From a virus: a stretch of 26,793 nt of DNA. The notes beneath the pieces were generated by a model that was given only the letters and a program-made list of their open reading frames with translations, ran no database searches and had not been told where the DNA came from. Where the stretch lies: the IMG/VR virus record IMGVR_UViG_3300045988_077293. One strand, given 5' to 3'. Below, piece by piece: positions 11,991 through 25,029 of the stretch. Positions within the stretch are counted from its first letter, which is position 1. Each line of letters opens with the position of its first letter. The translations under genes were made by a program, and so were the position numbers.

Positions 11991-12309
11991 TAAGGTTTCC
12001 TCCTTTCGTGGAGATTTTAAGCCCCGCATTTTTTATCACTCTCGCGGCTATCTCGTCCCCGCTCTCGCCTTTATCGCCTTCCACGATGTCTGCAAAGCGT
12101 TGTGTGAGCCGTTTGCCCTGCGCATAGTAAAAGATACTATCCGAGATGTAATAATCAAATGCGGCGCGTTTAGCGCGTTCCTGCGCCATATACAGCAATT
12201 CGGCGGTGATGTATTCAACCCCGCCGAACATTTTCGCTTTTATGGGGTCAATGGCCGCCAAATCGTGCTGTACGTTCAGCGCGTCAAGTCCATTAACCGC
12301 ACCAAAAAA
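11977..12309 (-). CDS. Tail assembly chaperone -1 frame extension (T part of G-T)
   Basis: The -1 frame is open from the slippery site through ORF 11977-12261 (GAVNGLDALNVQHDLAAIDPIKAKMFGG...NLNEFV). It has no SD or credible start of its own. Confidence 0.7.
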   Translation of the reverse strand, partial: FFGAVNGLDALNVQHDLAAIDPIKAKMFGGVEYITAELLYMAQERAKRAAFDYYISDSIFYYAQGKRLTQRFADIVEGDKGESGDEIAARVIKNAGLKISTKGGNLNEFV

Positions 12310-12665
12310 TTTATTATCTGAGGATTTGCCAAAATATCGAAAACAGGAAGCATAAAATCAATGCCGTTATATTCTTTGATATCCTTTTCATCGATAAAGC
12401 ACATCAAGGCTATCAGCTTAGCCGTTTTCTTCGGCTCTTTGGTCATAAGCTCGCACAAAATCTCTTTAAGATTTTCGCCGCCCTGCTCCTGTATCTTTGC
12501 CTGACGCTCATCGGGCGTTTCCGTTCAGTCGAATTTCGGCATTTTCTGCCTTATTGCCTGTATCTTTTTGTCCCCGAATACTTTCTTAAATTCCGACACA
12601 AGCTTATATGCCTGCGGAAGAAATTCATCCATAGGACAATTTGCAATCGTTTTCGTTATTTCCAT
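12276..12665 (-). CDS. Tail assembly chaperone (G part), interrupted by an in-frame TGA at codon 47
   Basis: ATG at 12665-12663 with an AGGGAGG SD. The reading is MEITKTIANCPMDEFLPQAYKLVSEFKKVFGDKKIQAIRQKMPKFD-TGA-TETPDERQAKIQEQGGENLKEILCELMTKEP...RLMDLTR. The TGA is at 12527-12525. The ORF track shows only the distal part, 12276-12458. Confidence 0.65.
12303..12309 (-). promoter_or_regulatory. -1 programmed ribosomal frameshift slippery heptamer T_TTT_TTG
   Basis: The zero frame reads AAT TTT TTG, 10 codons before the chaperone stop codon. The X_XXY_YYZ pattern is correctly phased. Confidence 0.7.
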
Positions 12666-12687
12666 AAAATCCTCCCTTTATTTTTCT

Positions 12688-13272
12688 TTATGTTCCGGCT
12701 TTGATGTAGATTTCAAACGGACATACTTCAGGCGTAGCCGCGCTTGCGTGCGCTGTAAACTCAGCCGCAAACGAGCCTTTATCCTTTTCCGCGCTCTGTA
12801 TCTGAAAACCGCCAGTCGAAAGCGCGTTAACAAGGTGTATTGCGATGTAGCCACCCGATTCCGAGCTGTGCTTGTCGGAGTAGTCGCCAACCCACCAAAC
12901 ATCGAAAAAGTCTGTATCTGTAAGATTTGTTCTCGGTGTTACCTTCGTTGTGTCGCTCGCGCCGATATCTGCCGCGCCGAGAAGCTTTTTCGCAAGGTCG
13001 GTTGTTACTGTTTTGAATGTTCCCGAAAGCTTAAACTTCCACGAGTCAAGCTCTTTGCCTTCTTTCGTGTTTTTCACGGAATTGTCTATGCCTTCGGCAA
13101 GGTCAATATAAGTCGGTGTAGCCGTTACATTAACTCCGCCATCGGTTGCGCCGAGAATATCCGTAATCGTGAGTTCAGCAGTTGACGGGGTAAAATCGGA
13201 AAGCAGTACGCCCGCATTGAGCTGAAGCTCTTTATATGTGTTTGCGGGTATCTGCGTGAATTTCATTCCCAT
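12688..13272 (-). CDS. Major tail (tube) protein
   Basis: 194 aa, positioned immediately before the chaperones. The composition is beta-rich (GTFKTVTTDLAKKLLGA..., FEIYIKAGT). The start could be the second ATG at 13266. Confidence 0.75.
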   Translation of the reverse strand: MGMKFTQIPANTYKELQLNAGVLLSDFTPSTAELTITDILGATDGGVNVTATPTYIDLAEGIDNSVKNTKEGKELDSWKFKLSGTFKTVTTDLAKKLLGAADIGASDTTKVTPRTNLTDTDFFDVWWVGDYSDKHSSESGGYIAIHLVNALSTGGFQIQSAEKDKGSFAAEFTAHASAATPEVCPFEIYIKAGT

Positions 13273-13285
13273 AGTCTTTCCTTTC

Positions 13286-13654
13286 TCAATCGGCGGTTAA
13301 GTATTCCACCGAAAGGTTTATTATTTTTCTTCTTATCATATCGTCGTTTTGGTCGCCCATATTCTGCGCGAAAGGCTCTCCGCGTTTAATCCATATTGCG
13401 CCGCCGTCACAGGCTTCCATAATTCCGCCTGTGCCGATTATGCGCGATATTTCTTCCGTTTTTTCGTTCGCCGCAAGCCACGATGTGGAGCGATACCACA
13501 GCGAAGCGGTAAGAGCTATTTCCCCGCCGAAGCTATCCGTTGCCACATAATATGTGATATACGGATATGCCGTTTTATCCGGAACGGCATTTTCTTCATA
13601 TGCGGGAAGCGAAAACTGCGCAAAAAATGAGTGTAAAGCTTCTGTTTTCGTCAT
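13286..13654 (-). CDS. Tail completion / terminator-like protein (DUF3168-like)
   Basis: Trimmed to an ATG that forms an ATGA overlap with the upstream stop (MTKTEALHSFF...). AVPDKTAYPYITYYVATDSFGG resembles gp17-type proteins. The call is positional. Confidence 0.5.
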   Translation of the reverse strand: MTKTEALHSFFAQFSLPAYEENAVPDKTAYPYITYYVATDSFGGEIALTASLWYRSTSWLAANEKTEEISRIIGTGGIMEACDGGAIWIKRGEPFAQNMGDQNDDMIRRKIINLSVEYLTAD

Positions 13655-14001
13655 TGCGGCAATCTCCATTCTTCGGCGTTTACTTCCCTATAAGCGAAAG
13701 ACGCGGAATCGGGCGTTTTCATATCTTCTCCGTCTGAGGTTACGCGGAAAATCTTTCCGTCGCTCTTTCTTCTCAATACGTCGTGATAGTCCAAAATAAC
13801 GCTCTTGCGCGTCACGAGCGTATACAGGGCTGTAACACCCTGCTGTTGCGCTATTCTCGCTTCTGTGGAGTTGTCAAGGCGCGATACGGCGTTTATTGTC
13901 GCTCCGTCCGTCCACGTCGTTATCGTTCCTCCTACGCCGTCCGGAACGACCGCTTTGTTGAGTATTACAAAAGGCTCAAACGCCTTTTCAAGCAAACTCA
14001 T
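13651..14001 (-). CDS. Head closure / head-tail joining protein (SPP1 gp16-like)
   Basis: Trimmed to the ATG at 14001 (MSLLEKAFEPF), which has a GGAGGAAGTT SD. Size and position are typical. Confidence 0.5.
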   Translation of the reverse strand: MSLLEKAFEPFVILNKAVVPDGVGGTITTWTDGATINAVSRLDNSTEARIAQQQGVTALYTLVTRKSVILDYHDVLRRKSDGKIFRVTSDGEDMKTPDSASFAYREVNAEEWRLPQ

Positions 14002-14417
14002 AACTTCCTCCAAACGTTAAGGCGCGACGCGAACACATTCTGCCACGAGCTATCGGGCTTTCCTGCGGCGTTTGTCGCCTTTGTATATGAATATCCACCC
14101 CAACTTTCCGACGCGTAAGGAGAAATAGCCGCCGCGTCGGATTTGGAGTAGTCATCAATCTCGGTGTTGAGGGCGAGAAAAGAGGGAGGAATTTTCATCG
14201 CCCACACCGAGCCATTAAACACCTCGTCGATTAAATCCGACTGAGGATACTGATGAACACCGTCATTGAACGTACTTCCGACAATTCGGAAATATTGTCC
14301 GTCCTGTAAAAAGTCAAGCGGCGTAATAGTGCCGTCCTTGACCGTGAATGTGCCGACGTGCTTATCTTCGTCCGAAGTAAACCAATTTCGGCACTCTCTG
14401 CAAAGTTCAGTAAGCAT
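13998..14417 (-). CDS. Virion protein of the head-tail connector region (family not recognised)
   Basis: 139 aa, directly after the major capsid gene. Confidence 0.45.
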   Translation of the reverse strand: MLTELCRECRNWFTSDEDKHVGTFTVKDGTITPLDFLQDGQYFRIVGSTFNDGVHQYPQSDLIDEVFNGSVWAMKIPPSFLALNTEIDDYSKSDAAAISPYASESWGGYSYTKATNAAGKPDSSWQNVFASRLNVWRKL

Positions 14418-14437
14418 TTTACGCCGCCTTTCTTAAT

Positions 14438-15295
14438 TTAGAATGTGCATTTAAGACCTGCAAGTCTCTTTGCGTCAACGACCTTTGCGCCGTAAAGGTG
14501 AAGTCCCTTAACAGCGTCAGCAAATCTCTTTTCGGGTCTGTAAGCTTCGGTGCTTGTAATCTGCTCTGCATATGTGCAAGCGCCTTCGTCGCCCGCCGTG
14601 ATTGTATATGTTGTGGTGTTCGAGGAAGTTGCGCTGTTGCAGTTGTTCGACATATAGATGTCAAAGCCTGCCGCTCTTGCAACCCAACCATTGCGGAGGG
14701 TTTCTTCTGCCATTGCGCCGCCTGTCTTTACGAAACGGTCGTCCTGAAGAATGAGCGCAACCATTTCAGGCGGGATTACAAGCCAACGACCCGTTGTGGG
14801 AACGTTTGCTTTGTCAAGGACTGTTTTCATCTTGACAACGTTTTCATAAACGTTATCTTTTGTGAGCGCAACAGCCGTTGTGCCGACCTGATTGCCGTTT
14901 GCCGTTGTAATAGCTGCCGCGAGCTGGTCGGCAAGATATTTGTCCGCAACGTCATTGAGTCCATAAGCGGCTCTCTGCATTGCTTTGTCCATAACGTCGC
15001 CTGCTGCCTGTGCTGTGTCGATATCGTCAACAGCAAAATTGAAGTATTTTGCCTGATCAATAACGAGCGTCTGGTCGGTTGTGGTAAGTGCCTGAGGACC
15101 CGATGTAAAGTCTGTGTCCTTTGTGTATGTGCCGATTGTTACCGCGCCAATCGTATTTATATGCACGGTATCGCCCTGCTTCTTGATATCGCCTTCGTAA
15201 TCTCTGTTTACGAGTCCTGCGAAAACGTGAGCCTTGTCAAGAGCGTTGAGAAGTCTCGCGTTCCAAAGTTCGGGAATGAATGATGTAAGTGCCAT
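14438..15295 (-). CDS. Major capsid protein (HK97 fold, P22-coat-like family)
   Basis: FIPELWNARLLNALDKAHVFAGLVNRDYEGDIKKQGDTVHINT fits the N-terminal signature. 285 aa, follows the scaffold gene, strong SD. Confidence 0.85.
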   Translation of the reverse strand: MALTSFIPELWNARLLNALDKAHVFAGLVNRDYEGDIKKQGDTVHINTIGAVTIGTYTKDTDFTSGPQALTTTDQTLVIDQAKYFNFAVDDIDTAQAAGDVMDKAMQRAAYGLNDVADKYLADQLAAAITTANGNQVGTTAVALTKDNVYENVVKMKTVLDKANVPTTGRWLVIPPEMVALILQDDRFVKTGGAMAEETLRNGWVARAAGFDIYMSNNCNSATSSNTTTYTITAGDEGACTYAEQITSTEAYRPEKRFADAVKGLHLYGAKVVDAKRLAGLKCTF

Positions 15296-15315
15296 AATAA
15301 TAATATCTCCTTTGA

Positions 15316-15918
15316 TTAAAGATTTTTAAGCGACTGCTGTATATCGTCCCAATTCTTGTTTATTTCGTCGGGGGACATCTTTTCGATATCTTCGCGCGTA
15401 TATGCTTTTTTCTGCACCTGCGCGGGCGGAGTCGCAGTCTTTGCTCCGCGTGTCTGCTCGGTCACGATAAAGTCAGCCCATTCCGATTTAATCGAGTCCG
15501 TCAGTGCGTCGCCGTCCTTGATTTTGCCGTCCTCGTCAAGCTCTATGCCGTCAACGTTTGATACTTTGAGTATGCTGTCTATCCGCTTTTCCGAAACGCC
15601 GCACGCCTTTAACACATCGCGATAAGCCGCTAACTTTGCGCCGTGTGTTTCCTTTGCGGATATTTCAGCTTTATATTTTTCAAAGTCCTCTTTGACTGCG
15701 TCATACTTGACCTTGTAGCTGTCTTTTCCGTTCGCTTCGATTGTTTTGTTAGCTTCGCCGAGTTCCTTTTCTACCTCCGCCAACTTATCAGCGTCCGCTT
15801 TATATACGGTTATCTGCTCTTTGAGAGCATCAACAGTTTCTGCGTGCGCTTCGATTATGGTATCAATCTGTTCATCGCTGATACCCATTCCTTTGAGCAA
15901 TTTTCTTGTAAGTCCCAT
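15316..15918 (-). CDS. Scaffolding protein (GP20-type)
   Basis: ORF 15316-16170 trimmed to the ATG at 15918 (MGLTRKLLKGMGISDEQIDTIIEAHAETVDALKEQ), which has a GAAGGAGAG SD. The protein is coiled-coil rich. Promoter P4 lies inside the longer ORF version. Confidence 0.8.
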   Translation of the reverse strand: MGLTRKLLKGMGISDEQIDTIIEAHAETVDALKEQITVYKADADKLAEVEKELGEANKTIEANGKDSYKVKYDAVKEDFEKYKAEISAKETHGAKLAAYRDVLKACGVSEKRIDSILKVSNVDGIELDEDGKIKDGDALTDSIKSEWADFIVTEQTRGAKTATPPAQVQKKAYTREDIEKMSPDEINKNWDDIQQSLKNL

Positions 15919-15984
15919 TCGCTGCTCTCCTTCGTCGCGTATTCTTTCGCGTTCGCGTTTGCCGATTTCTCGGCTTCTGATTGC

Positions 15985-16013
15985 ATTATAGCACAAAGTG
16001 CATAAATTGTCAA
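15985..16013 (-). promoter_or_regulatory. Sigma-A type promoter P4 (TTGACA-17 nt-TATAAT, TGC extended -10) in front of the scaffold and capsid genes
   Basis: The minus strand reads TTGACAATTTATGCACTTTGTGCTATAAT. A GCCGA-GAAA-TCGGC stem-loop at 15974-15961 would lie at the 5' end of the transcript. Confidence 0.7.
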
Positions 16014-16048
16014 TACAATTTCTAACTAATGTAAATTTAACTTTGCAT

Positions 16049-16167
16049 TTAATTCTTTTCGGACTCCAAAGCCGCTTCAAGTATTGCTTTGTATTCGTCC
16101 GAATGCCGTGTTGCCGCGTGCAAAAGCATATGATGTGCTTTTTGTCGGCTCGTTCCGTTTTCAACAT
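16049..16167 (-). CDS. HK97 gp10-like (Mu G-like) head-tail protein, proposed exon 2
   Basis: Reading (U)AU GUU GAA AAC GGA ACG gives (Y)VENGTSRQKAHHMLLHAATRHSDEYKAILEAALESEKN, with a TAA stop at 16051-16049. This supplies the missing family C-terminus. Confidence 0.65.
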
Positions 16168-16418
16168 CATTTTGTTATCGCAAAGCTTTTTATCTTTGCT
16201 TCTTGTAGTTGCTAACTACAAGTTCGGCGTACATTATCGCATTTCTGCGCCAAGCACTCTTGGGGGCTTTATTGCTTCCATAACGCTCAGCCCCTACGCT
16301 CTACAATGTCAGCGGTCTGCTGATTATCTCGGTGTTGCCCATTGATAAACAATTCCACGTTAGTGTCAAGCAGGTTTTCACCGATTTTGCTCGGTTTACC
16401 CTCCGCATATTAAAGTTT
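16168..16418 (-). ncRNA. Putative ORF-less group I self-splicing intron (251 nt)
   Basis: The 5' exon ends in U. P1 pairs exon CUCCGU with intron GCGGAG and places a U.G wobble at the splice site. P10 pairs intron AUAU (extendable to UUUAAUAU) with exon 2 AUGU(UGAAA). The intron ends in G. It is dense in hairpins, including a GAAA tetraloop. Confidence 0.65.
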
Positions 16419-16626
16419 ACGGAGCATAATATACATTCGTACCGATATAAGCATCGTGTCCTTTGACGGCGTGAGACATACTGTTGCGCAAACGTCCTGT
16501 GTCAACGGGCGTTTCCGCCTTTGTATGACTTTCTGCCACTTCTCCCATTGTCTCAAGGGCTTTTGCCGTTGCCCGCTCTAACTGTTTGAGCGTCAATCCG
16601 CTGTTGTCCTCAAATGTTATCTTCAC
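16419..16626 (-). CDS. HK97 gp10-like (Mu G-like) head-tail protein, proposed exon 1
   Basis: GTG start overlapping the upstream TGA, with an AAGGAG SD. AETPVDTGRLRNSMSHAVKGHDAYIGTNVYYAP fits the gp10 family. The unspliced ORF stops at 16417 inside the conserved YAPYVE.GT motif. Confidence 0.75.
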
Positions 16627-17606
16627 GTTTTCGCTCCTTTCTTCGCCTGTGTCGGCTTCTGCGATATTTTGACAACATCGCCGTTCGCTTTTCTAAACCC
16701 CACAACTTCATAAACAAGAGTGCAGCGGCAATTATAAACCATTGCAGGGTCTGCGTTCGGGTCTCCCGGATATTCTATCGTGTATGTAACGACGTGTGGG
16801 TGCTTTTTGCCCTCAATTACCGTAACAACAAACTTTTCGTCCCGCTCTTTCGTTTGACCGTTCAAAAGCCTGTGCGCGTCTCTCGTCCGATTATCGTGCG
16901 CGGACAGCCATTTCTTTTTCGTGACTATCCCATTTTTGTCTGCGGTTTCGAGCATATCTATTCGCCCTTTGTTCTCGGCAGATGTAACCATTGTGCGGGC
17001 GTTTCTGATTGCGGAATCCCTGTTCATATCCTCAACCGCTTTCAATCTCTTTGCGATTTTTGGTATGCTTTCGCCCTGCAATATCCCCTGTATCACTTCC
17101 GCATTTATCCGCTTAGTGTTCCACCGCTCGTCTTTCTTCCCGTTGACTTGTTTGTATGGTAAAAGCGTCTTGTCTTTTGTCGCAAGGTTTTTAACGGTGT
17201 GTTGGTCTACCAATTCAAAAGATATGCCCCCTAAACCGTCCATATCGCCCGCTATGGCGTTGTAATTGAGAGAGTATATCGGGGGAAGCTCCCCGTTTAT
17301 ATACGCCACAGCCGTTTTATTTACGTTTGTGAGCTGTTCTGCTGTTTGCTCCACCATACGTTTATAACGGCTTGTTTTATATACAGAGTTGCGGAGAAAG
17401 TCTCTGTATGCTTTCTCCGCTTTTTCTCTTTCCTCGCCCTCGGCATTAAGTATCGCTTTTTGGAGCTTCGCCGCTTTGTCCTTGAATTTGTCAAGATATT
17501 TGTCCCATTCTGCACGGATTTCTTTGTCGGCTCTTGTGTATATTTCCGTGAGTTTCTTTTCTATCTTCTCGAGGACAGCGTCCGTCTCTCTATGCGCTTT
17601 ATCCAT
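16623..17606 (-). CDS. Head morphogenesis protein, SPP1 gp7 / Mu F-like
   Basis: IRNARTMVTSAENKGRIDML...KKKWLSAHDNRTRDAHRLLNGQTKERDEKF...YPGDPNADPAMVYNCRCTL matches the Phage_Mu_F signature. Confidence 0.9.
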   Translation of the reverse strand: MDKAHRETDAVLEKIEKKLTEIYTRADKEIRAEWDKYLDKFKDKAAKLQKAILNAEGEEREKAEKAYRDFLRNSVYKTSRYKRMVEQTAEQLTNVNKTAVAYINGELPPIYSLNYNAIAGDMDGLGGISFELVDQHTVKNLATKDKTLLPYKQVNGKKDERWNTKRINAEVIQGILQGESIPKIAKRLKAVEDMNRDSAIRNARTMVTSAENKGRIDMLETADKNGIVTKKKWLSAHDNRTRDAHRLLNGQTKERDEKFVVTVIEGKKHPHVVTYTIEYPGDPNADPAMVYNCRCTLVYEVVGFRKANGDVVKISQKPTQAKKGAKT

Positions 17607-17635
17607 TTTTATCTACTCTGCCTTTCAACTCGCCG

Positions 17636-17812
17636 TTAGCGTATCGTGCACGTCAACAGCATATCGGGGATAAGAGCCACACCGTCTTTTACATCAACGT
17701 CAAAAGAACGTCCTAGCTGTTTATTTGAAAAATGCACCTGTGCGCTATCCGCCGTTACGCTTCGTCCTGTGTCCCATTGAAAAAGCGTTGTTCTTTCGTC
17801 TGTTAGTTTCAT
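17636..17812 (-). CDS. Small ORF (58 aa) between the portal and MuF-like genes
   Basis: The ATG at 17812-17810 overlaps the portal TGA as ATGA. My translation is MKLTDERTTLFQWDTGRSVTADSAQVHFSNKQLGRSFDVDVKDGVALIPDMLLTCTIR. It fills an otherwise empty 200-nt gap. Confidence 0.45.
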   Translation of the reverse strand: MKLTDERTTLFQWDTGRSVTADSAQVHFSNKQLGRSFDVDVKDGVALIPDMLLTCTIR

Positions 17813-19149
17813 TCTGCCACCTCATATCTGCTTTGTTCTTCCGTTCTGCGTTTTCTGATTATTTCGTCCGTTTTATCAGCTATGCCGAGTATTTGGCAGA
17901 CTTGCTCGACGATCGTTTCGTCGTCAAGGTACGCCTGAGCCGCAAGCAATGTGTTTATCTCGTCGGATTTGTTAATAACTTTGGAACGTGTGAATGTGAC
18001 TTTATCGTCTATTCCCGCAAGTTCGAGAATTTTCTGCACAAACTCAATAACGCAATATTCGTACATATCGCATTTGCTATCGAGCGGCTGGTATGCGGCT
18101 TTAATCTCTGTGGCTGTTTTATTTGCCGCCGAAAGGGAATTTACATCAAGGCACATAAAGTCCTCATACAGCCGTCTCTGTATCGTCTGAATGGCACTCT
18201 CGCTTGCCTGATACGGCGCTTCTATCGTGTGCGCTTCCGCTGTTGCTCCGCTGTCGCCGTCCGCGTGCGCAACGTGCGTTGTTTTCAACTGCTCAATAAA
18301 CTTCGCGTCGTCCATCTCGTCCATTCCCCCGCAGTTCGTGAGAACCCAATAAATGTAGTTCGCCTCGTCAAGGTTGTTCACAAGGTTGCTGTTCAGGAGG
18401 TCGAAAGCGTCAAGCGTTCCCTGCCTGCCGACAAGCTCCGACTGCTTTTTATCATTTCCCCAAAGCGGGACTATCGGGAACGTCGGGTAATTCTCGCCGT
18501 CGTATATCTCCTCGCCGTCCGCTTCTGATGTGCGCACTTTGAGTTTATAAGGTCGTTTTTCGTGGAGTATTGCGCTTTCGTCGTTCGCCCTTAGATAATC
18601 CGTGTATCCGTCCTCTTCGTACAACGTCGCCCTCATAGGTTTATCAGGCGATACTTGCCAAAATCTTATGCCCGCTCTCAATGCGCCGTTTTCTTCGTCA
18701 TAAAGCGGAACGAATTCCAACAGCGAAAAAGTGTCGATGTGGTCAAGGTTGAAAAATCCGAACGCCACTCCGCCGACAAGTGCCTTTTTCCCCAAGTCCT
18801 GCAACTGTGTGTCGAAGTCATTCCCAAGCTTTGCCTTTGTATCGTCTTTTGTAAATGTTGCACCGTTGCCGAGTAAGTATTGATTTTCCTGCGTTATCGC
18901 AAAATTTAAAAAGTTTGACGCTATTTTATGGTTCGGTGTCCATTTGTCAACGTGCGCGTCGCCCCGCATATCATAGATAATTTTTTCGTACTTCGTTATG
19001 CGCGGGTTTAGTCCCCTGTAATATTGCTCTGCGTCAAGAGCGATAATATAAGGCTCAGTGCCTTTGTGTTCGGTAATGGCGGCAAAAACAAACGCCATTT
19101 TTGCGGCTTCGTTTTTGCTTGCCGCAATTAAGTCCTGATAGCTCTTCAT
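17809..19149 (-). CDS. Portal protein (SPP1 gp6-like)
   Basis: 446 aa, directly after TerL. Contains typical portal segments (NHKIASNFLNFAITQENQYLLGNG..., FPIVPLWGNDKKQSEL..., ATEIKAAYQPLDSK). Confidence 0.9.
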   Translation of the reverse strand: MKSYQDLIAASKNEAAKMAFVFAAITEHKGTEPYIIALDAEQYYRGLNPRITKYEKIIYDMRGDAHVDKWTPNHKIASNFLNFAITQENQYLLGNGATFTKDDTKAKLGNDFDTQLQDLGKKALVGGVAFGFFNLDHIDTFSLLEFVPLYDEENGALRAGIRFWQVSPDKPMRATLYEEDGYTDYLRANDESAILHEKRPYKLKVRTSEADGEEIYDGENYPTFPIVPLWGNDKKQSELVGRQGTLDAFDLLNSNLVNNLDEANYIYWVLTNCGGMDEMDDAKFIEQLKTTHVAHADGDSGATAEAHTIEAPYQASESAIQTIQRRLYEDFMCLDVNSLSAANKTATEIKAAYQPLDSKCDMYEYCVIEFVQKILELAGIDDKVTFTRSKVINKSDEINTLLAAQAYLDDETIVEQVCQILGIADKTDEIIRKRRTEEQSRYEVAE

Positions 19150-19153
19150 TCGT

Positions 19154-20416
19154 TCACCCCTTAAGTATAGATTGATAATCGCCGTTCTTCTTCCAAAGTC
19201 TGCGGATTTGGCACGACAAGCTGTCGGGCGCGTCGTCGTGTTCCGCGTTTTCGTTGTAGTTGCAAACTTGCTCTATATATTCTTTGTCGGTATCCTCAAC
19301 AAAGTATATATTCTTCCATTCGGCTTTCAGATAGGACGTTATTTTGAGATATTTATTCATATTCTCGTGATAAATAACTACACGTTCGCCCCTGCGCCGT
19401 AATTCCTTACCTAGATATCCTTTGTCTCCGTTGTCCTCAACGAATATCTTCCCCGCATTAAACCGAGCGTGTAACGCTTGTATTTCGTCGAGACAATCGT
19501 CGACGTGTTTGTTCCATAGCTTGCCGAGTACATAATAAACATCGCCGTCTTTCCTGACAAGCGTGTATGCCGTAAGGTCGCTCCCTCCATATGCCGCGTC
19601 TATATGTCCGTCGCCTTGTTCCACAAGATATGAACCTGCGCCCGTGTGCGGATTTGAGAATATAACAGCCTCCGCCGCAATATGCCGCAACTCGTAGTTG
19701 CACGCAAACAGAGAAGCCGTCATACTTTCCTTGACTTCGGCAACGTCCTCTTCTGTCATCAGTCCCGTTGAGTAGCAGTCCCACTTTTCGGGAGAGGGCA
19801 TAATTGAAAAGCAGTCATCGGCGTGCCACGGCGTTCCCGTGTTGAAAATCCGCCCGCCCCTGTTCTTGATGTTCTGCAACTCCTGATATACAGTTTTTGT
19901 CCGCTCTCGCTCCGCCTTTGATATTCGGTCGTTGACGTTGACAATATCGTCTGTAAAAATCCTGTCAAAGTGCTTTCCCGTCAGAGAGCCGCCGCAACCC
20001 GCTCCGATAAGCTGTGCCGTTCCTCTTATGTCTATTGACAGGTTTGTCGTCAGCTCCGTCGCATTTTCAGTCGCAAGCCTTAAATTAACGCCATAAATAC
20101 ACTGCACAAAATACAGTGTGTGCGGGTCTTGCAGGATTTTTGACGTCTGCTTGATAATCTCTTTAACGTCGTTGTCGGTCTTTCGCATAAACATTGTGCG
20201 CTTGTTCGGGAGAAGAATAATAATTATTGCCAAAGCCAACGACACGCACGTTGTCTTATAAGAGCCTCTGTGCGCCTGCAGCGTCTTATCATCCTTGCCG
20301 ACAATCATATCCCTTATCCATTTGTTGTGAAGCTCCGTCAGCTTCGTAAACCCGAGCATATGCCCCAGTTTATACGGAGACGTTAAAAGAAAATTGACCG
20401 CCTGTTCGCGCGTCAT
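19154..20416 (-). CDS. terL: Terminase large subunit
   Basis: Trimmed to the ATG at 20416, an ATGA overlap with the upstream stop (MTREQAVNFLL). Walker A-like HRGSYKTT, Walker B RIFTDD, and GTPWH. The nuclease half has IDAAYGGSDLTA, VEDNGDKG and HDDAPDS. Confidence 0.95.
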   Translation of the reverse strand: MTREQAVNFLLTSPYKLGHMLGFTKLTELHNKWIRDMIVGKDDKTLQAHRGSYKTTCVSLALAIIIILLPNKRTMFMRKTDNDVKEIIKQTSKILQDPHTLYFVQCIYGVNLRLATENATELTTNLSIDIRGTAQLIGAGCGGSLTGKHFDRIFTDDIVNVNDRISKAERERTKTVYQELQNIKNRGGRIFNTGTPWHADDCFSIMPSPEKWDCYSTGLMTEEDVAEVKESMTASLFACNYELRHIAAEAVIFSNPHTGAGSYLVEQGDGHIDAAYGGSDLTAYTLVRKDGDVYYVLGKLWNKHVDDCLDEIQALHARFNAGKIFVEDNGDKGYLGKELRRRGERVVIYHENMNKYLKITSYLKAEWKNIYFVEDTDKEYIEQVCNYNENAEHDDAPDSLSCQIRRLWKKNGDYQSILKG

Positions 20417-22549: not shown

Positions 22550-23284
22550 TTATTTTCTTTTTTTATCGTTGTTATAACGAATTATACCGTTCATAAAATC
22601 ATTACCTTGAATTGCGGCGCAAACTGTATCCTTGTTCAAACAGTGGCTGTCCCAGTACGGCTTTTCTTCATATACGAAAGTGTGGGAAGAGCCGCAACGC
22701 TCATCGAGAATAAATCCCTCTCTAACACTTTCATAAGAACAGTTATATTTTTTACACATTTCATAAAAGGAATTACAGAACGAAACTTTTGTCGCAAGGA
22801 AACAGTTTTCCATCAGTTTAACCATTTCAGCTTCCGACGATTTCATTTTCAAAAATCTGTGTCTGCCGTCGTACACTTTTTGCAAAAGCTGTATAACTTT
22901 GTCGCAAGTCTTTTCACACCCCCCTAAAATCGTAAAATCAAACTTGAAATTGTTGCAATGCTGTGTTCCTCCGTAATACTCGGGAGAAAAAAAAATATTT
23001 TCTTTCCCGAGCGAATTAACAAAGCCTATCGGGACTGTGGATTTTACAACATAAATTTCGCAATCGTTTTCGTTTATTGCATTAACAACTTCGCTTGTGT
23101 CAAACAATTCTTTTTCCTTGTCATAAGGCGTGTCTACACAAACAAATCCGAACTTGTATTTTTCCTTTTTCTTTGTCGTTTTTTCCTTTTTGTATTTGTC
23201 AACAACATCGGGAGTTAATACTGAAAGCTCTTTTAACAGATTGTTTCCGACAACTCCGCAGCCGATTATTAAAACATCACTCAT
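22550..23284 (-). CDS. UDP-glucose/GDP-mannose dehydrogenase-family protein lacking the C-terminal nucleotide-sugar-binding domain
   Basis: IIGCGVVG (GxGxxG), FVCVDTP, VVKSTVPIG, FSPEYYGG, SEAEMVKLMENCFLATKVSFCNSF, and the catalytic-Cys region WDSHCLNKD. The protein ends about 30 aa later, at 244 aa. Confidence 0.7.
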   Translation of the reverse strand: MSDVLIIGCGVVGNNLLKELSVLTPDVVDKYKKEKTTKKKEKYKFGFVCVDTPYDKEKELFDTSEVVNAINENDCEIYVVKSTVPIGFVNSLGKENIFFSPEYYGGTQHCNNFKFDFTILGGCEKTCDKVIQLLQKVYDGRHRFLKMKSSEAEMVKLMENCFLATKVSFCNSFYEMCKKYNCSYESVREGFILDERCGSSHTFVYEEKPYWDSHCLNKDTVCAAIQGNDFMNGIIRYNNDKKRK

Positions 23285-24026
23285 ACTTTAACCTCTGCTT
23301 TCTCTGAATATTTGTTCTTATGCGAATTTGATTTTTATGAGTTCCGACTACCAAATATTTTCCCCATTTTTTTTGCAAACTGTCCAAACTCTTTTCAAAA
23401 TCTTTTGCCGTTCGGAACTCGCTATTGCCTCCGACATTATCGTCCCTGCTCTGGGAGAAAAAATAACGGTTATCTTGCCAAATAATCCTATCGGTCAGCA
23501 GGCATTTCATACAAAAATCAATATCAACTTTATACTTATCGTTTCTAAATCTGTGTTCACGACCTATAACGCCGATAACACAGCCGAGCCAACCACATAA
23601 CGAAAAAGGTTCTGCGCCGTTGAACTTCCGAATATCAGTTTGGTTAAACCCAAAAACTTTTGCGCCTGCGTCGTCAGCCATTACTGCGGCATTGACAATA
23701 ACGTCAAGAACTTCGTCTTTATCTTCAACACGTTCGCTTTTAACTCCCGTCAGACGATATACATATTTTATATCGTCGTCAATCATAATAACGATGCGTT
23801 CTTTGAAATGGTCTAAAACCCAATTCCGAACTTCTCCTAAACCTTTGATTTCGTCGGGAATAGTAATAATAGGATTTTTAACGGCTTTTTCGTAATCGCT
23901 TTTCTGCGTTTCGGGAACAAGAATTTCAATGAAGCTTGGCAACAGCTCGTTTGTAGTGATACTGTTAAACCTCGAACGGCTCAGTATCAAAATTTTCACG
24001 TCCAAGCGCTTCAATAAGTCTTTCAC
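23277..24026 (-). CDS. Putative GT-A-like glycosyl/nucleotidyl transferase (DxD-type IMIDDDI)
   Basis: Alternating beta-alpha pattern: KILILSRSRFNSITTNELLP, ILVPETQKSDYEKA, GLGEVRNWVLDHF and IVIMIDDDIKYVY. GTG start with a GGGAGGG SD. The start overlaps the ParB-like gene by 62 nt. The fold assignment is by eye only. Confidence 0.45.
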   Translation of the reverse strand: MKDLLKRLDVKILILSRSRFNSITTNELLPSFIEILVPETQKSDYEKAVKNPIITIPDEIKGLGEVRNWVLDHFKERIVIMIDDDIKYVYRLTGVKSERVEDKDEVLDVIVNAAVMADDAGAKVFGFNQTDIRKFNGAEPFSLCGWLGCVIGVIGREHRFRNDKYKVDIDFCMKCLLTDRIIWQDNRYFFSQSRDDNVGGNSEFRTAKDFEKSLDSLQKKWGKYLVVGTHKNQIRIRTNIQRKQRLKYE

Positions 24027-24567
24027 CTTTTATAACCCTCCCAAGTCCGACTTTTCTCTTTTCCCAACCTGCGTCTATTCTTTTCAGTCCAAACTTATTA
24101 ACTATATTTAGCCAATCCTGCGTGTTGTCGAAAACAAAAACAACATAATCGTGATGCTCAAACTGTTTCAACTCCATTTTTTCCAGCTCTTTGTTATGTT
24201 TATTTTCGTTTTCTTTTTCTTTATCACTTTCGAGTTCGTCAAAGCCAAAATCAAAACAGCTTAAATCAATATCTTCCAACTCGTCCAGCAAAGCTTCACA
24301 ATCCCACTCGCTTTCGTTGCTTTTGTTGTCAACAATTCGCAAAGCCTTTACTTGTTCTTCCGTGAGGTCATCGACGCATACGCACGGAACATCTTTCATG
24401 CCGAGAGCCTTTGCCGCTTCATACCTACAATGCCCAATAACAATAACTCCGTCTTTGTCAACGACAATCGGCTGAACAAATCCGTATTGCCTTATACTTT
24501 CAGCAACGTTGTTTATTTGTGTTTTGTCGTGCTTCTTCGCGTTTTTTCTTATACGGGGCAATCTCAT
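23965..24567 (-). CDS. ParB-like nuclease domain protein (as shown in the ORF track). The true start is probably ATG 24592, with a +1 frameshift at the A6 run 24547-24542.
   Basis: NAKKHDKTQINNVAESIRQYGFVQPIVVDKDGVIVIGHCRYEAAKALGMKDVPCVCVDDLTEEQVKALRIVDNK is a ParBc signature. The missing N-terminal strand MKVENRKLDEIAPYKK is encoded upstream in another frame, behind a strong AGGAGG SD. Confidence 0.85.
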   Translation of the reverse strand: MRLPRIRKNAKKHDKTQINNVAESIRQYGFVQPIVVDKDGVIVIGHCRYEAAKALGMKDVPCVCVDDLTEEQVKALRIVDNKSNESEWDCEALLDELEDIDLSCFDFGFDELESDKEKENENKHNKELEKMELKQFEHHDYVVFVFDNTQDWLNIVNKFGLKRIDAGWEKRKVGLGRVIKGERLIEALGRENFDTEPFEV

Positions 24568-24651: not shown

Positions 24652-25029
24652 TTAAACCTCTTTTATTGTAATTCCGTACTTGTAAAGCATTAGTTTTTTC
24701 TTTATTTTGTAAACTTCGGTTTTCATTCCTTTCGCGTCCTCTATGACCTGTTTTCCGCCTTCACAATAGGCGAAGTCGCAAACGTAATAGCAAGGACGTT
24801 CAACCACCTTTCCGTCTATTCTCTGCGACGGTATAAGCTCAAAACGCTTCTGCAATTCGAGATTGGATATCTCACCCGCTTTTTCAAGCATTTTTAACTC
24901 CGAATACCTCTGTGCTTCCCTTTTGCTTGCGAAAACGTGTCCGTCTATGGTCTGCTTCCTCGAATGATATTTGCTTTTCGTATTCGCGCTTGCATTTCCA
25001 AGAGCAAACCTTCTTTTTGAGAAATCCAC
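24652..25029 (-). CDS. DUF1064 family protein (phage replication/recombination-associated, putative nuclease)
   Basis: KSKYHSRKQTIDGHVFASKREAQRYSELKMLEKAGEISNLELQKRFELIP...YVCDFAY...VIEDAKGMKT fits DUF1064. GTG start with an AAAGGAG SD. Confidence 0.8.
   Translation of the reverse strand: MDFSKRRFALGNASANTKSKYHSRKQTIDGHVFASKREAQRYSELKMLEKAGEISNLELQKRFELIPSQRIDGKVVERPCYYVCDFAYCEGGKQVIEDAKGMKTEVYKIKKKLMLYKYGITIKEV

Follow-up and report, generated by a model that had tools for sequence, protein, structure and literature searches.

The group I introns of the T4 td gene and of phage Twort are phage-borne members of subgroup IA2, with extra helices between P7 and P3 and an in-frame stop codon soon after the 5' splice site, and their presence varies among related phages. 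In the late genes of phages of Gram-positive hosts, group I introns are well documented (Tourasse & Kolstø 2008; PMC2504315): passages of that survey class related phage introns as IA1 or IA2, place introns of these subgroups in the tape-measure, terminase and tail-tube genes of Bacillus cereus group prophages, and list the introns of phages JCL1032 and ROSA as relatives of its terminase introns. The JCL1032 introns were reported to be self-splicing, as stated by the title of Riipinen & Alatossava 2004 (cited in PMC6669764). Here we analyse a virus sequence of 26,793 nucleotides (nt) (IMG/VR virus record IMGVR_UViG_3300045988_077293; this whole stretch is referred to as the window), on whose minus strand a first-pass annotation had proposed an HK97 gp10-like structural gene split by a 251-nt group I intron devoid of an open reading frame (ORF). 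Our results make it very probable that this insert is a functional group I intron that splits a gp10-like virion gene and is removed from its transcript by splicing.

The window copy has in common with the td and Twort introns its subgroup (IA), the presence of extra helices between P7 and P3, an early in-frame stop and a variable presence among relatives; the extra helices are P7.1 and P7.2 in td and Twort, against a P7.1/P7.1a-like arrangement in the window, and neither T4 nor Twort was among the BLAST matches listed, where no sequence similarity to them was detectable. The terL intron of JCL1032 belongs to the same RNA family as the window copy, shows the same core helices and the same 3' signature (GAUAAAAAGC...GAUAAC), and is similarly short (226 nt), without an ORF and without P2. 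Each is inserted at a highly conserved motif of a late gene for the virion or for packaging, the motif in terL being the Walker A sequence (GRKNG|KT). Their host genes and guide sequences differ, the P5 region of the window is longer (44 nt), as is its P10 (8 bp versus 6 bp), and splicing, reported in a title for JCL1032, is predicted for the window. The Bacillus cereus group introns, compared here by their description in passages of the survey (PMC2504315), reside, like the window copy, in the most conserved stretches of late genes, occur with or without endonuclease genes, and have P1 and P10 fitted to each site, as here, although their hosts and genes are others. Among the target genes named in those passages, none is gp10-like.

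Results

A split gp10-like gene and its uninterrupted relatives

The gp10-like gene is encoded on the minus strand in two exons. Exon 1 (16419..16626) specifies residues 1 to 69 and the first base (U) of the Tyr70 codon; its GTG start codon (16626..16624) has AAAGGAG just upstream and overlaps the stop codon of a Mu F-like gene. Read through, it yields the 69-amino-acid (aa) ORF ending ...GTNVYYAP* at 16626..16417, exactly as first annotated. Exon 2 (16049..16167) provides the last two bases of the Tyr70 codon followed by VENGT...EKN, with its stop at 16051..16049, and the missing C-terminus that had been claimed in a different frame (VENGTSRQKAHHMLLHAATRHSDEYKAILEAALESEKN*) is indeed present. 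Excision of the intervening 251 nt (16418..16168) joins GCU CCG U|AU GUU GAA and restores a 108-aa product, the predicted spliced junction reading GCUCCGU-AUGUUGAAAAC and the predicted protein crossing it as ...NVYYAPYVENGTSR....

The PF04883 search that the first-pass annotation had suggested gave 29.4 bits for the 108-aa product, over the Pfam cut-off of 21.4 for this HK97-gp10_like family, while exon 1 alone reached only 20.9 bits; similarly, the phrog_5 score was 63.5 bits for the spliced product versus 32.1 bits for exon 1. Since profile scores rise for the spliced product, the split, the missing C-terminus and the repaired motif can be taken as real. The UAA stop of the unspliced reading arises across the 5' splice site (U|AA), and this reading gives the 69-aa product; ribosomes on unspliced RNA would therefore terminate before reaching the ribozyme. 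It had also been argued that, if unspliced, this region would be a non-coding gap in a genome otherwise free of gaps. The genome is densely coded, as stated, but other apparent gaps exist, which are occupied by short ORFs.

A protein search with the conceptual product identified two close uninterrupted relatives (P0001, 108 aa, 96% identical; P0002, 109 aa, 91%) together with 69-aa products ending in YAP (P0003-P0005, P0007 and P0008), and most of the others among the 120 best matches listed were uninterrupted homologues of 104-111 aa that bridge the junction. A length of 108 aa is thus normal for the family, as had been stated, most homologues in this search falling within 104-111 aa. P0001 and P0002 are encoded on three sequences from human gut metagenomes (L011, L009 and L010), where the gene order is that of the window: Mu F-like, gp10-like, scaffold, capsid. 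All three run directly from GCTCCGT to A/TTGTTGAAAAC, and the window has exactly 251 nt more, inserted between GCUCCGU and AUGUUGAA. From the DNA alignment alone, the boundary of this directly observed insertion is ambiguous by 1 nt; it is placed at 16418..16168 because the exon must end in U and the intron in G, and the 5' exon does end in U (16419) and the intron in G (16168), as annotated. The family model R1 described below had no match in the three intron-less loci.

Splice-site guides

As proposed, the end of exon 1 (CUCCGU, 16424..16419) pairs with an intron guide (GCGGAG, 16406..16401) over 6 contiguous base pairs, so that P1 (16401..16424) has a U16419·G16406 wobble at the splice site and a 12-nt loop, AAACUUUAAUAU, between its strands. 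Directly 5' of this guide lies the P10 guide, UUUAAUAU (16407..16414), whose partner is the beginning of exon 2, AUGUUGAA (16167..16160). The pairing with exon 2 that had been noticed therefore exists, but the bulge attributed to it does not: P10 consists of 8 contiguous pairs, two of them G·U. A P1 with the U·G wobble and a P10, each complementary to its own exons, were also found in five other members of the family, located in the gp10-like genes of three phages, in the tape-measure gene of a Streptococcus suis phage and in terL of JCL1032, with splice sites deduced from reading frames and motifs. In all copies the orientation is that of the sense strand of the interrupted gene.

Ribozyme fold and covariation

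Helices were read by eye from the window and three relatives, and were then tested on a structure-blind MAFFT alignment of 28 compact, ORF-less relatives from unrelated phages. Helices P3 to P9, which the first-pass annotation had left open, could all be assigned in the window. P3 (CCGAGC/GCUUGG; 16394..16389 with 16255..16250) is paired in 100% of cells (n = 28) and all six of its pairs change on both sides. It is followed by an A-rich J3/4 (AAAA, 16388..16385) and by P4 (UCGGUG/CACCGA; 16384..16379 with 16334..16329; 99.4% of cells paired), which encloses a P5 region of 44 nt (16378..16335) based on the pairing of CCU (16374..16372) with GGG (16340..16338); this is where relatives hold an endonuclease ORF. 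The P6 hairpin (16323..16309; UCAGC, loop AGACC, GCUGA) shows changes on both sides in each of its four outer pairs, and these, together with the three outer pairs of the P8 hairpin (16249..16238; CGCA, loop GAAA, UGCG), are about 93% paired and all covary. P7 (GCGUA/UACGC; 16299..16295 with 16231..16227) is paired in 100% of cells, its central pair being G-C in 15 sequences and A-U in 13 and its outer G-C and C-G pairs invariant; its 3' strand lies between the conserved J8/7, AUAAUG, and the sequence CGAA. P7 would, as in other group I introns, hold the guanosine-binding site. Between P7 and P3' lies the P7.1 extension (16294..16263; GGGGCU/AGCCCC; 4/6 pairs change both sides), whose inner segment, GAGCG...AGCAAUAA, forms a P7.1a hairpin that is clear in many relatives and marginal (2 bp) in the window.

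Toward the 3' end, the P9 hairpin (16222..16202; CUUGUAGUU, loop AGC, AACUACAAG) has visible homologues of different sequence in relatives, and its covariation is underestimated, as differences in length put it out of register in the MAFFT alignment. The P9.1 hairpin (16199..16180; GCAAAG, loop AUAAAAAG, CUUUGC) is paired in 98% of cells, with 5/6 pairs covarying, and is followed by the 3' tail, GAUAACAAAAUG (16179..16168), ending in G16168; these two elements (16199..16168) constitute the most conserved sequence signature of the family. The 3' strand of P3 crosses P7, giving the P3/P7 pseudoknot that is characteristic of group I introns. With P4-P6 and P8 in canonical order, an A-rich J3/4, the U·G wobble in P1, a terminal G and P10, the insert displays both the core and the splice-site features of this class.

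Covariation in the structure was observed directly. Across the 28 relatives, 89.2% of cells are able to pair, versus 68.4% in shuffles, and changes on both sides occur in 33 of 47 pairs. The covariation score was 0.543 versus 0.156 for shuffles, a value reached by 0/500 of them, and slid controls, in which partners were moved by 1-3 columns, gave 0.06-0.12. The window carries the family consensus base at 54/54 invariant columns and matches all but one of the nearly invariant columns, the exception being a gap due to its shorter P8. Among the hairpins that had been listed from the sequence, those corresponding to P6, P7.1, P8, P9 and P9.1 are real helices, while two others are not native, since ACCGA/UCGGU mixes strands of P3 and P4, and CCAAG/CUUGG mixes the junction before P3' with the 3' strand of P3. 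A minimum-free-energy (MFE) fold of the single sequence (z = -3.8) finds P1, P9 and P9.1 and misses the pseudoknotted core; its local pairings of the ACCGA/UCGGU type were ruled out by the comparative data. A group II intron was rejected as well, the insert being too short, having none of the expected domains and folding as group I.

Under the Michel and Westhof criteria of 1990, extra helices between P7 and P3' (P7.1 with P7.1a or P7.2) reportedly mark subgroup IA. In the window, P7.1 lies directly between P7 and P3'. We thus assign the intron to subgroup IA and describe it as IA1-like, a choice over IA2 that we infer.

According to the mechanism that we propose, the gp10-like gene would be transcribed together with its neighbours, and the intron would fold into the P3/P7 pseudoknot, the P4-P6 domain and the P7.1 extension, with the guide GCGGAG pairing with the end of exon 1 and setting U16419 in the U·G wobble. 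Catalysis and the order of its steps are modelled on the known pathway of group I introns: P7 would bind a free guanosine, which would attack after U16419; the guide UUUAAUAU would hold exon 2 via P10; and the terminal G16168 would take the place of free guanosine in the binding site. The ligated exons (...GCU CCG UAU GUU GAA...) would then be translated into the 108-aa protein.

Family membership and distribution

R1, a covariance model of the family from P4' to the terminal G, is based on 17 members from IMG/VR, the window being left out. It matched the window at 16334..16167 with 126.5 bits (E = 7e-31) over all 193 model positions, so that family membership is a direct observation, and no second copy was found by this search elsewhere in the window. 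The same model scored 118.9 bits for the JCL1032 terL intron and 93.7 bits for that of its tape-measure gene (L140, 8176-8387); the coding sequences (CDSs) of these two genes are annotated as joins, and are the only joined CDSs in the approximately 60% of the record examined.

A sensitive BLAST search of the region against phage genomes gave matches confined to the insert, in unrelated phages whose hosts are Arcanobacterium, Staphylococcus, Clostridium perfringens, Clostridioides difficile, Streptococcus suis and Caldibacillus. Wherever an inspected record was annotated, the match lay in the gap that separates the parts of a split late gene, such as a tape-measure or gp10-like gene. The 3'-end pattern GATAAAAAGC N4-8 GATAACAA was found in at least 120 IMG/VR stretches, and BLAST with a family member as the query retrieved at least 112 phage GenBank records, JCL1032 and ROSA included. 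The 3' domain also matched the crAss-like phages cr118_1, cr7_1 and cr128_1, Aeromonas jumbo phages, and a Leptolyngbya cyanophage in which it lies beside a LAGLIDADG endonuclease gene; the family is therefore far from confined to phages of Gram-positive hosts.

The same site in other phages

In the C. perfringens phages phiCP39-O, phiCP26F and PMQ04, the homologous gene contains a related 930-nt intron, left unannotated in their records, at the identical insertion point (GCUCCGU|AU), within the Tyr codon of the motif YAPY(V/L)ENGT, which in these phages reads YAP[Y]LENGT. They share the local gene order (Mu F-like minor head gene, gp10-like gene, strong promoter, next late genes), and their ribozyme is homologous to that of the window, scoring 150.1 bits with R1. 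Their intron differs in possessing a 216-aa ORF in the P5 region, assigned to the HNH endonucleases of phrog_374 (E = 1.6e-80), and a P2-like hairpin, and in having a weaker P1 and P10 (4 and 3 contiguous pairs). Among the titles and abstract openings of the literature, we found no paper on an intron in C. perfringens phages.

In Staphylococcus phage BE28 (at A[I]Y, phase 2) and in C. difficile phage phiCDKH02 (at A[S]Y, phase 1), too, the gp10-like gene is interrupted by a related intron, in the same motif and 1-3 nt from the position used in the window (AP[Y], phase 1). The intron ORFs of all three relatives belong to phrog_374, HNH endonuclease (E = 1e-69 or lower), and Pfam gave nothing significant for them. 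The window copy was described as ORF-less from the outset, and rightly so: the sole frame in its 251 nt is a 35-aa chance ORF that belongs to no endonuclease family. No homologue of the phrog_374 HNH endonuclease of the relatives was found anywhere in the window either. Because the intron has no ORF and the window no such homologue elsewhere, we read the window copy as an endonuclease-less deletion derivative of the HNH intron found at the C. perfringens site; the window copy has either lost the endonuclease ORF or never had one.

The presence and absence of the intron among near-identical phages show past mobility. By inheritance, and by recombination between co-infecting phages, the window copy would persist; this route of mobilisation is again proposed by analogy. 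It is conceivable, though we put it forward only tentatively, that the Y-A-x-Y-V-E motif of gp10-like (neck or tail-completion) genes is a recurrent landing pad for such introns, and that the 251-nt copy is still moving between diverged alleles of gut phages. If this were true, the movement of an ORF-less copy would need an endonuclease supplied in trans, or reverse splicing.

In the collection from IMG/VR, exon 2 begins in a (Y/F)(V/L)E(Y/F)G context in six further stretches (L015, L048, L066, L068, L090 and L116), and with Y-A-x-G-P-G instead in two others (L087 and L112). Among cultured phages, unannotated introns were located in phiCP39-O (L002, 1712-2641), phiCDKH02 (L003, 1434-2570), S. 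suis phage phiJH1301-1 (L004, 2272-2569), Arcanobacterium phage TPWB06 (L001, ~2417-2673) and S. epidermidis phage BE28 (L006, 602-1570), each host gene being recorded as a pair of CDSs, labelled 'hypothetical' or, in duplicate, 'tape measure'.

Between exon 2 and the scaffold gene, the window has a perfect (12/12) sigma-70 promoter on the minus strand (15985-16013), consisting of TTGACA, a 17-nt spacer and TATAAT with a TG extension, which is kept in the intron-less relatives; in phiCP39-O, a comparable TTGACA...TATAAT was seen by eye after exon 2 (L002, ~2750-2780). From the position of this promoter it follows that the gp10-like gene closes a transcription unit, or that an internal late promoter starts there.

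Maintenance of the intron in its lineage

The same 251-nt intron was recovered from five further independent assemblies of different samples (L132-L136). Across the six alleles, 5 of 251 intron sites are variable, versus 36 of 315 in the CDS. In the comparison with L132, the intron is 99.2% identical, exon 1 89.4% and the capsid gene 93.1%, so that no segment of the neighbourhood is as well conserved as the intron. Of the five intron substitutions, four keep base pairs: the six alleles have U·G, C-G or U-A at the P5 pair 47:79 (intron numbering), a P8 pair goes from G-C to G·U in L133, and one P9 pair goes from U-A to U·G. All six intron-bearing alleles have an open exon 2, whose sole length change is an in-frame 3-nt indel. 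Judged from the sequences, this pattern argues against a dead insertion; it would also be compatible with a recent spread between alleles, for proof of which the contrast with the flanks is too small.

Discussion

Alternative explanations

Several points weigh against our reading of the insert. The IA1 label leans on the Michel-Westhof criteria and on the classing of JCL1032/ROSA-related introns in passages of the Tourasse & Kolstø survey, and the self-splicing of JCL1032 is known from a cited title (PMC6669764). Splicing of the window copy is itself predicted from sequence only; one P9 pair is broken, from G-C to A·C, in L132 and L133; the window is without P2, unlike every other compact relative collected; and the Rfam check proposed by the first-pass annotation returned no intron family, neither over the whole window at gathering score nor in 15950..16700 (751 nt) with E up to 10, where only chance matches to small nucleolar and long non-coding RNAs (snoRNA/lncRNA) were seen. 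The last four, along with the lack of an ORF, would suit a small mobile insertion, a group I intron in decay or one of another type, which no longer splices and has left a gp10-like pseudogene, the phage doing without the protein or using the 69-aa fragment. We consider this unlikely. The annotation had named the want of a covariance-model hit among the results that would tell against an intron; this is formally what Rfam gave, but R1 does match. Moreover, Rfam 15 with E up to 10 found no intron in JCL1032 terL (L138, 1946-2171), in the two tape-measure introns of L001 and L004 or in phiCP39-O (L002), so that it detects 0/5 of the members tested, the window included. As JCL1032 terL and three other members are missed too, the Rfam negative reflects a blind spot of the library and is uninformative; this is a phage IA1-like family without a usable public model. 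The JCL1032 terL intron likewise has no P2, which makes this oddity of the window one common to a member reported to splice. Against decay, furthermore, the conserved core positions are all kept, the R1 score of the window (126.5) tops those of both published JCL1032 introns, P1 (6 bp) and P10 (8 bp) exactly fit this exon context, exon 2 has stayed open in six independent assemblies with one in-frame 3-nt indel, and pairing is kept by 4/5 of the intron substitutions.

A naturally split gene, with its halves made as separate polypeptides that then assemble, could draw on the fact that exon 1 has its own start, ribosome-binding site and stop codon; however, neither a start codon nor a ribosome-binding site stands at the beginning of the VENGT... 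frame, whose single ATG ORF starts at 16129, 13 residues further on, the most conserved motif is broken in mid-codon, the gene is in one piece in close relatives, and the covarying ribozyme fold between the halves would be left unexplained. We regard this possibility as highly improbable, and give equally little credence to a translational crossing of the insert by ribosomal bypassing or frameshifting, or to an assembly artefact. Bypassing has a precedent in phage T4 gene 60; the 251-nt gap of the window would be about five times that of gene 60, and no take-off/landing codon pair is apparent. An artefact is at odds with the same insert in six independent assemblies of different samples and with homologous inserts in finished genomes of cultured phages. 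The intron-less alleles, the covariation, the further assemblies and the R1 match effectively refute both.

Implications

The locus should be annotated as encoding a gp10-like protein of 108 aa. In public protein collections, intron-bearing alleles are represented by truncated products, of 69 aa (P0003-P0005, P0007 and P0008) and of 91 aa (P0112), and in the inspected records of C. perfringens, C. difficile, S. suis, Arcanobacterium and Staphylococcus phages, homologous introns appear as unannotated gaps or split 'hypothetical proteins'. Because the family is large and Rfam 15 misses the members tested, many split phage genes would come to light with a covariance model made for it. As a group I intron within a late gene of a phage, the find is of a well-known kind and leaves the accepted view of how these introns work unchanged; what it adds of use is detail on the gp10-like target, on the stagger of the insertion positions and on the Rfam blind spot, and one more essential-looking late gene joins the targets of group I introns. 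At one insertion site, endonuclease-bearing, ORF-less and empty alleles form a natural series that suits the study of endonuclease loss and intron persistence.

The phage and its neighbouring genes

Megablast of window positions 12000-20000 against the phage collection gave no match, which indicates a novel phage. A scan of genome contigs found one distant uninterrupted homologue of the gp10-like gene, 52% identical, in a Clostridiales metagenome-assembled genome. The window derives from an uncultured gut phage whose host is probably clostridial, on weak evidence. In L132, the Mu F-like gene (638-2341) encodes 567 aa, versus 327 aa in the window, and is followed by an extra 43-aa ORF, implying mosaicism just upstream of the intron-bearing gene. 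Elsewhere on the minus strand of the window, we noted three adjacent ORFs, for a UDP-glucose/GDP-mannose dehydrogenase-like protein (22550-23284; Pfam), a TET-associated glycosyltransferase (23277-24026; PF20691) and a protein with a ParB N-terminal domain (23965-24567), and a DUF1064 ORF is located at 24652-25029. From their domain content, the ORFs at 22550-24567 together with the DUF1064 ORF may represent a DNA base hypermodification module.

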